IMG/VR virus record: IMGVR_UViG_3300025715_000009
Location: 288,001-352,000 of that record
Origin: a virus
Lineage: Duplodnaviria > Caudoviricetes
Strand: one strand, 5' to 3'
DNA length: 64,000 nt
Positions 5,260 to 44,777 of the stretch are shown here, piece after piece (the stretch's first letter is position 1; every line of letters starts with the position of its first letter). Below the pieces are notes generated by a model. That model worked only from the letters and a program-made list of their open reading frames with translations. It searched no databases and was not told the origin of the DNA. Both the position numbers and the translations under genes were made by a program.

Positions 5260-5264
5260 TAGTG

Positions 5265-5335
5265 TGCCCCATTTGGGAATCGAACCCAAGTAAATAGTTT
5301 TAGAGACTACCGCTTTACCATTAAGCAAATGGAGC
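5265..5335 (-). tRNA. tRNA with CUA anticodon (amber suppressor)
   Basis: GCTCCAT/ATGGGGC acceptor; GTAGT-CTCTAAA-ACTAT anticodon arm; canonical TTCGATT T-loop. Confidence 0.88.
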
Positions 5336-10348: not shown

Positions 10349-11177
10349 GGGCTGAGACTATACCCTTCTCGCTATCACTTTCAAGCCCGTACCTTTGAGG
10401 TGCTACCCTCTCCGTTAAGCTCTTATCCACATCCTCATGGATGTCTGATAGCATGGCTGCCTTTTTTAGAGAGTGGCTTTTCTCTCGTCACAACAAGTTA
10501 ATCAACCTTCCGGTTACCGTCTACCTTGCGAGCAGTAAAGGACCGCTAAGTCCACCGTGCACCTTCCCATCAAACCCTTCCGCCTTGCGAGCTTCCAGGC
10601 TCCAGATTCTCTTTCGAGTCTGGACTTAAGCCATTTTCGCTTGTTGTCGGTCAAGACTTTTGCGTTTTCAATTGTTGGACTCGAACCAACGACCGATTGT
10701 ATTACAAGACAATTGCTCTACCATTGAGCAAAACTGAACGGGTTTCCCCTTGACCACGAGGTGCTTGACCAGTTGCTCCATATCCTTTTGAGATACGGAA
10801 TACAACACCTCGCATACATTTTACCTGCCGGCTACTTTGTGGTTTTTCAAGACCAGGTATTCCCCTGAATCTATCAAACTGCTATTAAGCACTTGTCTGC
10901 AAAGACTCGCACCTAATAACTACTGTTCTCTCTCATAGATAATCAGTTTTGCATGAAGATAATCCCTTGCGAGGAAAAGTTACTCTCACCCGGTTGGCCC
11001 TGAATAACTCTGTCTCTTCCTGATGTCTCTACAAATTCCGCTGGTAGCGAAATCATAGGAGAGTCAGCTTGCTTACATGAACTGTATTACTACAGCGGGA
11101 GGCGTCACCCTTTACCCCTTTATGATTATTGCTAATCACTATTCTTCGCCTTTCGGCAGGACCATAAGCAGCCCTTA
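10349..11177 (-). ncRNA. Large structured ncRNA, GOLLD-like (~830 nt)
   Basis: GC-elevated region lacking a credible ORF, many GNRA hairpins, ends resembling recalled GOLLD termini (GGGCTGCTTATGGTCC... / ...GGGTATAGTCTCAGC), own promoter motif and terminator, embedded tRNA. Confidence 0.7.
10667..10738 (-). tRNA. tRNA-Thr(UGU)-like element with an 8-nt anticodon loop, inside the large ncRNA
   Basis: TTCAGTT/AATTGAA acceptor, ATTGT-CTTGTAAT-ACAAT arm, GTTGG-TTCGAGT-CCAAC T-arm. Confidence 0.7.
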
Positions 11178-21987: not shown

Positions 21988-22425
21988 CTACTCTATATTC
22001 CACCAATTCTTATCATATTCTACTAGCAGGACTTCAATAATGCCATATTTTCTATTTTCTGGTTTCTCATATACTTTATCTAGAGAAACAATAACTGTCT
22101 GAACATTTACACTAAAATATGCCCAATTGCTAAACATCTCAAGCAAATCATATGCTACTTTTGTATCGCCTGTGTAATTATTAACCAGTAATTCTTTAAA
22201 TTTTGGACTTTCTTGTAGTGCCCAAACATATTCTAGCATGGTGTTAAGACCAAAGAAAATGCCTCTAACAAATGTTTCTTTTGTAGATGTAGTGAATGTT
22301 ACCCAGTTTTCCCCATTAAGAGTTAAAATTCCTCTATCTGGTCTAGGTGGAGAATCACTAATTTGAGCAAATGCAGAAAAAACTAGACTAAGAAAAACCA
22401 GGACAAACATAATCTTCTTGAACAT
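21988..22425 (-). CDS. Secreted protein, paralog of 19508..19870
   Basis: Signal peptide ending AFAQ; shared motifs with the paralog. Confidence 0.7.
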   Translation of the reverse strand: MFKKIMFVLVFLSLVFSAFAQISDSPPRPDRGILTLNGENWVTFTTSTKETFVRGIFFGLNTMLEYVWALQESPKFKELLVNNYTGDTKVAYDLLEMFSNWAYFSVNVQTVIVSLDKVYEKPENRKYGIIEVLLVEYDKNWWNIE

Positions 22426-22449
22426 CTTAACTCCTTTAAAAAAAGATTA

Positions 22450-22536
22450 CGGAAAGTGAGGGATTTGAACCCTCGGTGCCCTTACGAACACGCAATCTTA
22501 GCAGGATTGTGCCTTAGACCACTCGGCCAACTTTCC
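22450..22536 (-). tRNA. tRNA-Ser(GCU)
   Basis: CAATC-CTGCTAA-GATTG arm, long variable arm. Confidence 0.95.
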
Positions 22537-22537
22537 A

Positions 22538-22963
22538 TTAAATATGCAATATATCTATGTTATTTGATTCAAAAATTATATTATTAGGACTTACTGCCCA
22601 AGTATATCTCATCTTATCCAAAATAGCAGATACAATAACTTGAACATTTTTACGATTAAATCCATTTCCTCGAATTGAAGCTATCTCTAAATATAATGTC
22701 TTGTTTGCAGGTACATACCCCCAATAAAAAGTAAAATCTGTTTCTCCTTCTAATTTCTGCTTAATTTGAGCATGCTTCATGCCTTGCATGGAGATAAATG
22801 CTTCGCCTTTAGATGAATATACTCCTCGACCCCAATTAGATCCAAATGGTTGCATGGGTTGAGTTGAATCAATCCATCCTTTAGGAAGATATTGTTTAAT
22901 TGAAGAAAAAGAAGTAATAAGTTTGCTGACTGTTGCTTCTGTTAAAACTTTGTCAAACTTCAT
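22538..22963 (-). CDS. Putative virion-internal protein
   Basis: N-terminus MKFDKVLTEA. Confidence 0.55.
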   Translation of the reverse strand: MKFDKVLTEATVSKLITSFSSIKQYLPKGWIDSTQPMQPFGSNWGRGVYSSKGEAFISMQGMKHAQIKQKLEGETDFTFYWGYVPANKTLYLEIASIRGNGFNRKNVQVIVSAILDKMRYTWAVSPNNIIFESNNIDILHI

Positions 22964-23084
22964 GTTCTAATTCCTCTAGATATTTTTCAATATCTTTTTC
23001 TAAATCTTTGTCTTTAATTCTCATAAAAGTGAGAGCTTTGAGCATCCACTTTAATAAGAAAATTACAAGACTTGTTTTCATCTA

Positions 23085-23110
23085 GGTGATCGGTGGGAGT
23101 TGAACCCACC
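23085..23110 (-). pseudogene. Orphan tRNA 3' fragment (His-type)
   Basis: GTGGG-TTCAACT-CCCAC-CGATCAC-C: T-arm, acceptor strand and C73. Confidence 0.7.
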
Positions 23111-23159
23111 TTATATTATACTGAAATAATATCCTTTCTAAAATAATTTACAACTATTA

Positions 23160-23231
23160 GGGGTTTAGAGGGAATTGAACCCTCGACAGTGGTTCCACAG
23201 ACCACGGTTTTACCACTAAACTATAAACCCC
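23160..23231 (-). tRNA. tRNA-His(GUG) with encoded G-1
   Basis: GGGGTTTA/TAAACCCC acceptor; GTGGT-CTGTGGA-ACCAC arm. Confidence 0.92.
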
Positions 23232-23234
23232 ATG

Positions 23235-24050
23235 CTATTTTAATCCTAAACGAATTTCTTCTCTAATGATATCTTCATTGAACCATTTTATTAAAACCTT
23301 ATTTTGTTCTTCTGCTGCTTTCCATTTTAACAAATCTTTTTTTGTTGTATATCCTTTTGTTTCAATATAATAAGAATTATTAACTTTAAAATCAAACAAA
23401 TACATATGTTCTTTATTATCTTCATCTATATACACTATTCTATCTTTAGTATATTCCCAACATAAAATTTCTTTATTTTCTAACATTTTATCTAAAACAA
23501 AACATGTTCTTAATTCATATGTTCCTTGAACTTTTATGTTTTTATAGTAAAACCATTTTGTGGTTCCTCCATAAACTTTTTTACCATTCTTGTATTGTTT
23601 TTTTAATATATTAGATTGTTTATCTCTATGTTCTTGAGATTTTATTTTACATTGAAAACATAATCCAGATTTGGATTTTTTATTAATTTGTTTACCACAC
23701 TTGCAATATAAGCGTTTATATTTAGTTTTTCCCTTATTATGTGGTATTTTGCCTTTTATTTTAATTGATATTTTTAATTTTGTTTTTTCTGTATGTTTTC
23801 GGCTATTACCACAGGAATGAGAACAATATTTCCTTTCTTTTTTGTCTATATGCTGCGTTCCATCTTTTTTTATTTTTCTTTCTATTTCAAATTCTTTTCC
23901 ACATTTAAGGCATTTTTTTATTATTTTAACTCTTTGAAGAGTTAAAGAATTACTAGATTTTATATAAAGTTCTGGGTTATGTGATGCTTTATGACCACCA
24001 TATGCTGATGAGTTTTTAAATTCTTTTCCACATATTTCACATTTATACAT
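23235..24050 (-). CDS. Multi-Zn-finger plus PD-(D/E)XK (TnsA-N-like) free-standing endonuclease
   Basis: YKCEICGKEF...GGH..SH, CLKC, YCSHSC, HTEKTKLKIS NUMOD-like segment, QGTYE...YLFDFKV...IETKGY; probable start at 24050. Confidence 0.8.
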   Translation of the reverse strand: MYKCEICGKEFKNSSAYGGHKASHNPELYIKSSNSLTLQRVKIIKKCLKCGKEFEIERKIKKDGTQHIDKKERKYCSHSCGNSRKHTEKTKLKISIKIKGKIPHNKGKTKYKRLYCKCGKQINKKSKSGLCFQCKIKSQEHRDKQSNILKKQYKNGKKVYGGTTKWFYYKNIKVQGTYELRTCFVLDKMLENKEILCWEYTKDRIVYIDEDNKEHMYLFDFKVNNSYYIETKGYTTKKDLLKWKAAEEQNKVLIKWFNEDIIREEIRLGLK

Positions 24051-24077
24051 TATATTTGTTTTATATAAAAAAATAAA

Positions 24078-24155
24078 GGTGGTCGACGGGATTCGAACCC
24101 GCATTCTTTTCAGCCTGATCCACAGTCAGGTGCATAACCGTTCTGCCACGACCAC
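24078..24155 (-). tRNA. tRNA-His(GUG), no encoded G-1, enlarged variable loop
   Basis: CCTGA-CTGTGGA-TCAGG arm; GTGGTCG/CGACCAC-C acceptor. Confidence 0.88.
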
Positions 24156-24157
24156 AG

Positions 24158-24230
24158 TGGAGAATGCCGGACTTGAACCGGCCACATCCAGCTTGCAAAG
24201 CTGACGCTCTACCAGATGAGCTAATTCCCC
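24158..24230 (-). tRNA. tRNA-Ala(UGC)
   Basis: TCAGC-TTTGCAA-GCTGG arm; G3-U70 pair. Confidence 0.93.
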
Positions 24231-24396
24231 ATGATGAGTGAAGTATTATTTACATTTACATTTACTTCACTTACTTCTTTGCCACACAAACACTCTTTCT
24301 TTATCTTTACTAGTTTACCATCCTTGTAGATATAAATTTTTATTATACCTTGATTTATTGAGCAAAATTTACATGTATCACAATTCCATTCCATAG

Positions 24397-24469
24397 AGAC
24401 CCCGACAGGATTTGAACCTGCATAAAATGGATTTGCAATCCACTCCCTAGCCATTCGGGTCACGGAGCC
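24397..24469 (-). tRNA. tRNA-Cys(GCA)
   Basis: GTGGA-TTGCAAA-TCCAT arm; U73. Confidence 0.92.
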
Positions 24470-24587
24470 ACAGAAAACATAAAAGCAAGTAAGATGAAAA
24501 TAAAACCAGAAAAGAAAATAAAACTACCAATAAAACGAAATATAATCTTCATGCTTTTATTATATATTATATTTTAATCCTCTAAAA

Positions 24588-24670
24588 CGGAAACGGTGAG
24601 ATTCGAACTCACAAGCCCTCTCGGACCACTGGTTTTCGAAACCAGCGCCTTACCATTAGACTACGTTTCC
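24588..24670 (-). tRNA. tRNA-Ser(CGA)
   Basis: CTGGT-TTCGAAA-ACCAG arm, long variable arm. Confidence 0.92.
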
Positions 24671-24943
24671 ATAAATCTATAAATTAAATTGACAATATTC
24701 CTCTCCTTTTTGCATAAAATATTTTCCATCTTTTTCAAAAATAGGTGATAACACCCCATTTTCTTCTTTTTTACCAATAATAAAAGAAAATTTTTTGTCT
24801 TCATGCTGCAATATTATTTTTTTATTTGGATAATTAAGTTCTACAAGTTTATAGAGTAAATCATCAGTATTGTCATCTATAACTTCATAATTTAGTGGTG
24901 AGTTTTTATTTTCCATTTTTATTAAAAATTTTTGTATCATATA

Positions 24944-26157: not shown

Positions 26158-26384
26158 TAATGAGGGCCTAGGACCCTCATTGTTGAGATTTGTAGTGCTC
26201 TCACACATTACAATTGTGCGCAAAGGGGCTCTCAAACCCTTTTAACCCACTGAGATTCATCAGCTCCCCATGTGGACCAGCAATATAGCACATCGAATTT
26301 AACGCCGAGATTGTGCAAAGGGCGTGCCAGGTCAGGTCATAAGGCCAACCACCTTTATTCACTCCAAAAGGTAAGGAGGAGTAA
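26158..26384 (-). ncRNA. Unidentified structured RNA between tRNA-Ala and tRNA-Gln
   Basis: GC-elevated, multiple hairpins (AAAGGG..CCCTTT; ATGAGGG-TCCTAGG-CCCTCAT), no credible ORF. Confidence 0.5.
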
Positions 26385-26385
26385 G

Positions 26386-26457
26386 TGGACACGGGGGGAT
26401 TCGAACCCCTTAGACCTGAATGCAAATCAGGCGCATTACCAGTTATGCTACCGGCCC
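26386..26457 (-). tRNA. tRNA-Ala(UGC), second copy
   Basis: CCTGA-TTTGCAT-TCAGG arm; G3-U70 pair. Confidence 0.88.
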
Positions 26458-28435: not shown

Positions 28436-28446
28436 AAAACAGAATA

Positions 28447-28526
28447 CTGGGGCGACAGGACTCGAACCTGCATAAGATTTCTCCACTGGTTAACAGCCAG
28501 TTGCTCAGCCTTTGAGCCACACCCCA
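28447..28526 (-). tRNA. tRNA-Asn(GUU) with extended variable arm
   Basis: ACTGG-CTGTTAA-CCAGT arm followed by GGAGAAATCTTAT. Confidence 0.85.
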
Positions 28527-28577
28527 ATGTGCAACCCTAGAGTCGCTAGGCGTCTCTTTATTGGGTCGCAAGCGTCT

Positions 28578-44703: not shown

Positions 44704-44777
44704 AGGCCCAGACAGGAATTGAACACTGTGATTCTATCAATTGCAGTTGATTTGCCTTCCCACTTGGCTACTGGGCC
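44704..44777 (-). tRNA. tRNA-Cys(GCA), degenerate
   Basis: GGCCCAG/CTGGGCC-T acceptor; 6-nt CTGCAA loop; bulged T-stem. Confidence 0.6.

Follow-up and report, generated by a model that had tools for sequence, protein, structure and literature searches.

How does a nuclease gene come to lie between two tRNA-His genes, and why is the second of these followed by the 3' end of a third? The question is raised by a locus in a 64,000-nucleotide (nt) stretch of phage DNA, hereafter the window, which comprises bases 288001-352000 of the IMG/VR record IMGVR_UViG_3300025715_000009. The record comes from a sludge phage and is 388,268 base pairs (bp) long, with 29.7% G+C and an estimated completeness of 98%. 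We propose, with moderate confidence, that a ready-made module, formed by tRNA-Ala, a first tRNA-His (His A), the nuclease gene and a second tRNA-His (His B), landed on a resident canonical tRNA-His gene and left only a 3' remnant of it. On the basis of its sequence and predicted structure, the nuclease gene, which encodes 271 amino acids, is a putative free-standing homing-type endonuclease.

Organisation of the tRNA-His locus

The phage genome contains 59 tRNA genes in a single array of 72 kb; 41 of them are within the window, all on the minus strand. Just two of the 59 are tRNA-His genes, and both belong to the nuclease locus. Along the minus strand, the order is tRNA-Ala, the dinucleotide CT, His A, a 27-nt spacer, the nuclease gene, the trinucleotide CAT, His B, a 50-nt spacer and a 25-nt orphan fragment (the orphan). 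To the right of the orphan there are 3 nt, the ATG of an open reading frame (ORF) of 42 amino acids, an ORF of 141 amino acids and then tRNA-Ser(GCU). The features are the following.

24158-24230, minus strand: tRNA-Ala(UGC), copy 2 (ARAGORN; Rfam, 64.7 bits), left end of the module shared with the related contig L026
24156-24157, minus strand: CT spacer between tRNA-Ala and His A, read from the sequence; T at 24156 occupies the position of G-1, the G at position -1
24078-24155, minus strand: tRNA-His A (GUG), 78 nt (ARAGORN; Rfam tRNA, 57.1 bits)
23235-24050, minus strand: gene of the 271-amino-acid nuclease, stop codon TAG at 23237-23235
23160-23231, minus strand: tRNA-His B (GUG) (ARAGORN; Rfam tRNA, 68.8 bits)
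23110-23159, minus strand: 50-nt AT-rich spacer, tRNA ancestry undetectable
23085-23109, minus strand: orphan, 25-nt 3' remnant of a tRNA-His (T-stem, T-loop, acceptor 3' strand, C73)
22953-23081, minus strand: 42-amino-acid ORF, right-hand resident flank, with its ATG 3 nt past the orphan; conserved in the related contig L023
22538-22963, minus strand: 141-amino-acid ORF, resident flank, 93% identical to its L023 homologue and used as query for finding relatives

An earlier note on this DNA had described the two tRNA-His genes, the nuclease and a third His-type 3' fragment. All the features that it listed are present on the minus strand, including the ability of GTGGTCG, the 5' strand of His A, to pair with CGATCAC of the orphan through a G:U wobble.

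As read from the ORF list, the nuclease gene is the sole ORF of at least 60 amino acids in the interval of about 1 kb. No group I intron or other RNA family was found across 22400-24700 (Rfam, E ≤ 1) and the anticodon loops are intact in both His A and His B, which together speak against an intron of this type. Integrase-borne islands at tRNA 3' ends (attL/attR) share with this locus an intact tRNA, an insert of about 1 kb and a displaced copy of the 3' end. They differ from it in that the 1-kb interval contains no integrase and that the host is the array of a lytic-type jumbo phage. An island of this kind was rejected also because the orphan does not duplicate the 3' end of either tRNA-His: it matches the last 25 nt of His A at 19/25 positions and those of His B at 18/25 (22/25 for the His A of L026).

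The same module occupies a different site in a related phage

The most informative comparison was made with L026, a 7.5-kb NCBI metagenome contig encoding a nuclease 80% identical to that of the window. Here the order is tRNA-Ala, CT, His A, nuclease, CAT, His B with G-1 and then unrelated DNA, and no orphan is present. The blastn alignment of window 24214-23160 with L026 2346-3464 (78.5% identity) begins inside tRNA-Ala copy 2, at 24214, and breaks off precisely at the His B 3' end. Upstream of the L026 module, the DNA matches that preceding the other tRNA-Ala of the window (26537-26469; 91%) and the 3' part of tRNA-Val (97%). Because it is the upstream DNA of the other tRNA-Ala that is matched, the module lies at differing sites of the array in the two phages. 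The Ala-His A-nuclease-His B segment therefore appears to behave as one module, since in this lineage the nuclease travels with the upstream Ala-CT-His A as well as with His B.

The coupling between the nuclease gene and His B is particularly tight. Only the 3 nt CAT separate the TAG stop codon from the G-1 of His B (23231), and the two genes are found as an abutting pair in the window, in L026 and in L023 alike. His B is of the canonical bacterial type, with a GUG anticodon and an encoded G-1 that faces C73 (23160). Its three copies differ by three compensatory double changes (acceptor pairs 4:69 and 5:68 and anticodon-stem pair 28:42), with no broken pairs. The constant pairing of the two genes suggests that His B is inherited together with the nuclease gene. 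This bears out the earlier note in so far as the nuclease looks like a mobile, homing-type endonuclease with which His B travels.

The orphan fragment derives from a canonical tRNA-His

The orphan (23109-23085) reads GTGGG TTCAACT CCCAC CGATCAC C; these blocks form a T-stem with five perfect pairs, a canonical T-loop, the 7 nt of an acceptor 3' strand and C as discriminator. Neither ARAGORN nor Rfam (E ≤ 1) called a complete tRNA over it. A metagenome collection was scanned for intact genes with the pattern GTGRTCG, 42-70 nt, then TTCAANTCCCANCGATCACC; the anticodon was GTG in 39/39 intact genes with the orphan-type 3' end, in agreement with the His-type identity first attributed to the fragment. 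The pairing of GTGGTCG with CGATCAC, which needs a G4:U69 wobble, occurs in 17 of these 39 natural, intact tRNA-His genes. In the whole 388-kb genome, a T-arm pattern was found at 68 sites, 52 of which are within called tRNAs; 12 of the other 16 are on the tRNA strand of the 72-kb array. The orphan is accordingly not a chance match.

When the 50-nt spacer was compared with 41 tRNA-His 5' parts, the best global alignment was matched by 146 of 300 shuffled sequences and no tRNA similarity emerged. Since a spacer devoid of tRNA similarity adjoins 25 intact nt, the orphan is the remnant of a canonical tRNA-His that was truncated sharply at the boundary between variable loop and T-stem, rather than one that decayed slowly. 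An orphan T-arm is found also at 500-560 of locus L025, where it is followed by a hairpin and lies between tRNA-Cys and a distant relative of the 141-amino-acid flank gene.

tRNA-His A is an unusual but complete gene

In bacteria, the gene as a rule encodes G-1, on which HisRS chiefly relies to identify tRNA-His (PMC3245924, PMC3061083), so that His B is the ordinary gene of the locus and His A the puzzling one. Being the bacterial norm (PMC3061083, PMC3245924), an encoded G-1 is no distinctive trait of the cargo copy proposed in the earlier note. His A has the acceptor stem GUGGUCG/CGACCAC followed by C73, a variable region of 11 nt (CUGAAAAGAAU) and T at position -1 (24156), hence no encoded G-1; the same is true of position -1 in the L026 copy. 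The His A of L026 is 84 nt long and ends with CGACCACC, as does that of the window; its variable arm, UUCCAAUUGGAAAAAU, measures 16 nt, contains a hairpin and is homologous to the shorter arm of the window gene. Apart from this, the two copies differ by a single compensatory T-stem change (C:G to T:A), by one wobble and by one mismatch at 27:43.

The junction CCA-CT-GTGGTCG is common to the window, L026 and L048, an unrelated phage contig of 41% G+C. L048 carries an intact Ala-CT-His dimer that has T at -1 and the same 3' end as the orphan, and additionally a second tRNA-His, with G-1. A T at -1 was considered as a trait of phage arrays and this was rejected: it was present in 10 of the 39 pattern-matched His genes, but 4 of these 10 stand alone on their contig. 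The phage genome was searched for Thg1 (PF04446), as the earlier note had proposed, and for HisRS (PF13393), and neither was found. A conserved tRNA-His lacking G-1, in a phage with neither Thg1 nor HisRS, raises a small question on tRNA-His identity. Three phages keep the long-armed, Ala-linked His A without G-1 beside a canonical tRNA-His, and it may have a specialised role rather than being a normal His donor; for instance, it may be resistant to a host defence nuclease directed against tRNA-His or to the element's own nuclease.

According to the earlier note, an insertion into an ancestral His gene left a chimeric copy and a cargo copy. Spelled out, a cassette composed of T-arm and acceptor strand, nuclease and His B would have entered the variable loop of an Ala-linked tRNA-His, so that His A would join a resident 5' half to a cassette 3' half and the orphan would be the original 3' half. 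This scheme fits the natural pairing of GTGGTCG with CGATCAC seen in intact His genes and places the break at the variable loop, as at the tRNA-Val locus described below; it also agrees with the intact dimer of L048, which combines T at -1 and the 5' strand GTGGTCG with the 3' end of the orphan, although 18 of the 25 positions of this end were fixed by the search pattern. It is nevertheless hard to reconcile with L026, where His A is complete, has a homologous and longer arm and the same end, and stands at another site with no orphan. Any such event would have to predate the split between the window phage and L026, and a non-functional orphan would have to stay perfect over about 21% divergence. 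The 11-nt variable loop, which the earlier note had found odd, is not a junction scar, since its L026 homologue is longer and long variable arms are common: 29 of 206 (about 14%) non-class-II tRNAs in these phage arrays have at least 80 nt. We consider the chimeric origin of His A improbable. What stands of the original idea of an insertion into an ancestral His gene is the orphan, the remnant of a canonical tRNA-His; His A is apparently not its chimera.

As to the long tRNAs in general, those of 80-91 nt often have a small hairpin in the variable region, and their isotypes include Asn, Asp, Met, Glu, Cys, Lys, Ala and His. Examples are an 82-nt tRNA-Asn at 28446-28527 of the window and tRNAs at loci L008, L071, L073, L087, L095 and others. 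A role of the long variable arm as protection from the nucleases was rejected, because tRNAs of at least 80 nt are not enriched beside nuclease genes (1 of 22 neighbours on the upstream side, 1 of 17 on the downstream side) as compared to the other tRNAs (27 of 167).

A second relative in which the element has decayed

L023, a 1.7-kb JGI contig, contains tRNA-Ala followed at once by the nuclease, then His B, the abutting sequence CGATCACC and the 42- and 141-amino-acid ORFs. His A is absent and only the last 8 nt of the orphan are retained, a 63-nt deletion between the CCCnC motifs of the His B end and of the orphan having removed the spacer and the orphan T-arm. The nuclease is split into ORFs of 161 and 123 amino acids by a frameshift in an A-run; its first zinc finger lacks a Cys pair and its stop codon is lost into the tRNA. 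Identity between window and L023 is 87% for tRNA-Ala, 80.8% for nuclease plus His B and 83.6% for the downstream flank. An independent gain of the cassette in the two phages was rejected, since its identity (80.8%) is near that of the flanks (83.6-87%) and common descent is simpler. The simple reading is that L023 shares its descent with the window and then underwent deletions and decay of the element.

L023 bears also on the possibility that the orphan is a functional RNA, such as a T-arm mini-helix acting as a processing or stabilising signal for the mRNA of the 42- and 141-amino-acid ORFs. The orphan is perfectly formed, ends 3 nt ahead of the ATG of the first ORF and, together with the whole region 22900-24300, is 100% identical in 10 contigs from different samples that carry the identical 141-amino-acid protein. 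However, these contigs are identical throughout the 1.4 kb, hence uninformative on variation and silent on selection, and L023 has both ORFs yet has lost the T-arm. Given this loss, the orphan is dispensable, and a function as RNA is very unlikely.

Searches for a closer relative, or for one with an empty site, gave little. Viral-contig scans with the two flanking proteins returned no relative; neither the 5' half of His A nor the orphan had an exact DNA match; the pattern of the Ala-CT-His junction had at least 119 chance matches, none of them in a tRNA; the protein-cluster look-up yielded only the window protein and L023, and a homologue search with the upstream 87-amino-acid ORF only the query itself. 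No phage with both His genes and the fragment but devoid of the nuclease, which would have spoken against an insertion, was seen among the two informative relatives in the databases searched.

Structure of the predicted nuclease

The 271-amino-acid protein combines a C2H2 zinc finger and additional Cys pairs with a NUMOD3 motif and, at its C-terminus, a PD-(D/E)XK domain (residues 160-271). Pfam gave matches below the cut-offs for the C2H2 finger, NUMOD3 and Phage_endo_I, and PHROGs gave phrog_945, annotated as endonuclease (E 3.8e-6). In an alignment of 30 homologues, E179, D220, E230 and K232, which form the motif E...D...ExK, are invariant, and all of them are present in the window protein. 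The AlphaFold (AF2) model has a predicted local distance difference test score (pLDDT) of 85.7. In a VIA-align search, residues 160-271 aligned to TnsA (Z 8.9, 108 residues, root-mean-square deviation 3.3); other fold matches were the catalytic domain of I-Bth0305I (Z 6.8), Vsr (Z 6.2), VRR-NUC and Bax1. A Foldseek search of the model against the PDB gave no match at E ≤ 0.001. Membership of the GIY-YIG family was ruled out, as Pfam detected no GIY-YIG domain (E ≤ 1) and the catalytic domain is of the PD-(D/E)XK type. Fold and motif thus predict a putative PD-(D/E)XK nuclease with zinc-finger and NUMOD3 DNA-binding modules.

An in-frame ATG at 24104, inside the T-arm region of His A, gives a 289-amino-acid ORF, which is the one chosen by gene callers (cluster representative P0005). 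This is probably not the start, because the homologues begin at MxKCxxCGK; 24050 is the likely one. With readthrough of its TAG, the nuclease ORF would continue through His B. ARAGORN called one CUA tRNA, labelled Pyl (amber suppressor type), as well as two tRNAs whose anticodon loops are irregular; the three calls are at 5264-5335, 10666-10738 and 44704-44777.

Distribution of the nuclease family

Homologues of the nuclease form about 100 clusters, nearly all unnamed. Among 40 viral-contig loci with homologues, 39 have same-strand tRNAs at a distance of 1.5 kb or less. Many ORFs of the family either stop a few nt short of the next tRNA or run into it by 15-66 nt, and this downstream tRNA is specific for Asp, His, Phe, Thr, Cys or Tyr. 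In GenBank phages, tblastn found no match to the nuclease and blastn found only generic tRNA similarity.

In a tree of the nuclease domain, all 9 rows flanked by tRNA-His fall within one clade of 13 rows (support 88/84), with none among the 18 rows outside it. The His gene is directly downstream in 5 of these rows and upstream in 4; the window and L026 have both. The nucleases of the window, L026 and L027 form a well-supported clade. In L027, whose nuclease is 59% identical, the order is tRNA-Asn, nuclease and a different tRNA-His with G-1 that overlaps the end of the ORF. These sequence comparisons show that the family lives almost only in phage tRNA arrays and that one subclade is tied to tRNA-His. 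At locus L104 (1403-2360), the layout of the His locus recurs with another isotype: a tRNA-Phe precedes a homologue of the nuclease, a second tRNA-Phe abuts the latter, and about 46 nt further on there are an orphan T-arm and other tRNA-like segments.

A tRNA-Val cassette in the same array

The same window contains a resident tRNA-Val that is split at the D-loop and at the variable loop around a cassette composed of a nuclease and a tRNA-Val. L026 keeps this tRNA-Val intact, so that both states are seen at the Val locus. The two loci have in common the array, a nuclease, an abutting isoacceptor tRNA and a resident 3' remnant that starts from the variable loop. The nucleases are 37.5% identical in their N-terminal parts, whereas their C-terminal nuclease domains have no tblastn match to each other. 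Moreover, a 17-nt 5' stub remains at the Val locus, whereas the His locus has a complete copy upstream of the nuclease and no counterpart with an empty site in the databases searched. The His locus is a second, less clean example beside the Val locus.

Model for the origin of the locus

From these observations we infer the following order of events. The nuclease would have cut the resident canonical tRNA-His of the recipient phage, and repair would have copied the module from the donor through homology of the left-hand tRNA genes (Ala and/or the 5' half of His). The right side would have been joined without homology, so that the T-arm and acceptor strand of the resident gene stayed behind as the orphan. 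In place of the destroyed gene, tRNA-His would be supplied by His B and perhaps by His A as well. The replacement of most of the resident tRNA-His by the module would have taken place before the window phage and L023 diverged; afterwards, on the way to L023, the nuclease would have been frameshifted, His A lost and the 63 nt deleted.

Several points weigh against this reconstruction. Homology is absent at the right junction, where the one-sided repair is a model, and an empty-site relative (Ala, His and the 42-amino-acid ORF with no nuclease) was not found in the databases searched, so that for His the insertion is not seen in both of its states. The breaks at the other nuclease loci of this genome vary (D-loop, variable loop, anticodon loop), and because of this the edge of the orphan need not mark the cut site. 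The support of the 13-row His clade is modest, the nuclease gene lacks a clear Shine-Dalgarno sequence in the window, and the frameshift of L023, being in an A-run, could be an assembly error. Finally, a plain 5' deletion in a third tandem His gene would yield the same picture.

In the latter case, a complete canonical tRNA-His would once have stood in tandem after His B, and its 5' 47 nt would have been deleted or replaced with no insertion, either spontaneously or following self-cleavage by the nuclease. The length of the spacer (50 nt), which is about that of the missing 5' part, fits such a decay in situ, as do the many tRNA fragments across this and related arrays and the further deletions that L023 shows at the locus; SegB, a nuclease of phages T4 and T6, cuts the tRNA genes of its own genome and drives local rearrangements (PMC13096335). 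On the other hand, the spacer bears no trace of tRNA while the adjoining 25 nt are perfect, and the module ends exactly at the 3' end of the L026 His B, with unrelated DNA beyond it, which suggests a junction. In addition, the Val locus in the same genome is a documented insertion. Decay in situ is accordingly a possible course of events that we regard as unlikely, and the landing of a ready-made module on a resident tRNA-His is the reading that we prefer.

Comparison with known systems

The closest known system is SegB, with which the His element may be compared by analogy. The motif recognised by SegB in tRNA genes is T-psi-C (GGTTCRANTCC), and the enzyme drives the inheritance of the T4 tRNA region (PMC2330249), as well as the amplification of tRNA genes (PMC2330249, PMC13096335). 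In both cases a free-standing nuclease gene lies within a phage tRNA cluster (PMC2330249, PMC13096335), and the targeting of tRNA genes, the co-inheritance of neighbouring tRNAs, the local rearrangements and the tRNA-associated homologues of SegB have likely counterparts in the His element. The family described here would thus do roughly what SegB is known to do. The differences are, however, evident. SegB has a GIY-YIG fold, whereas the His nuclease is of the PD-(D/E)XK type with zinc finger and NUMOD3. The neighbourhoods of SegB show no isotype preference (PMC2330249, PMC13096335), whereas the clade of the His-locus nuclease is tied to one isotype. Furthermore, at the His locus the ORF abuts or, elsewhere in the family, overlaps the downstream tRNA, a broken resident tRNA adjoins the element, and cleavage is a prediction made from fold and motif.

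I-Bth0305I, of Bacillus phage 0305phi8-36, shares with the window nuclease the restriction-endonuclease-like catalytic domain (Z 6.8). Another homing endonuclease of the PD-(D/E)XK type is I-Ssp6803I, which belongs to a cyanobacterial tRNA-fMet intron. These enzymes are likewise selfish nucleases in phage or tRNA contexts. They are intron-encoded, whereas the window nuclease is free-standing with no intron detected by Rfam; identity is at most 16%, which is too low to show membership of the same family.

Implications for phage tRNA arrays

To our knowledge, SegB is the one family of homing endonucleases described so far from phage tRNA clusters, and recent work has shown that it matters for the escape from tRNA-cutting defences. 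An unrelated zinc-finger/PD-(D/E)XK family, with about 100 clusters none of which is named beyond "hypothetical protein", appears to fill the same niche in huge environmental phages. What is new with respect to the SegB precedent is the nuclease family, its His-linked clade and the tightly coupled isoacceptor tRNA. The family provides a set of candidate sequence-specific nucleases recognising tRNA genes. As the element leaves broken resident tRNA genes behind, it would give a cause for the messy, fragment-rich and fast-changing arrays of jumbo phages. More tentatively, the tRNA arrays of huge phages might be shaped by isotype-specific "destroy and replace" elements, in which the nuclease destroys the tRNA gene of a competitor and brings a resistant isoacceptor. 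We hold this generalisation to be rather doubtful; if true, it would account for the abundance of tRNA fragments in the arrays, for their duplicated isoacceptors and for the divergence of their tRNA sequences.

Some minor observations concern the surroundings of the module. The window has two tRNA-Ala(UGC) genes (26385-26457 and 24158-24230), each followed by CT, and the L026 His module occupies the position that copy 1 (26385-26457) holds in the window. The 2.2 kb that separate copy 1 from copy 2 (tRNA-Gln, Ser, Asp, Thr, Ser and Cys, with small ORFs) resemble an Ala-bounded rearrangement. Stretches of about 200 nt that are relatively rich in G+C and free of ORFs and tRNA calls come after tRNA-Ala copy 1 in the window (26160-26384, minus strand) and after His B in L026 (3466-3640), and resemble structured non-coding RNAs. 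In L048 (1-381 and 724-1119), an ORF that by eye looks PD-(D/E)XK-like ends exactly at the start of tRNA-Ala, and an ORF that by eye looks of HNH type comes after tRNA-Lys; if this reading is right, further nuclease families also abut tRNA genes.

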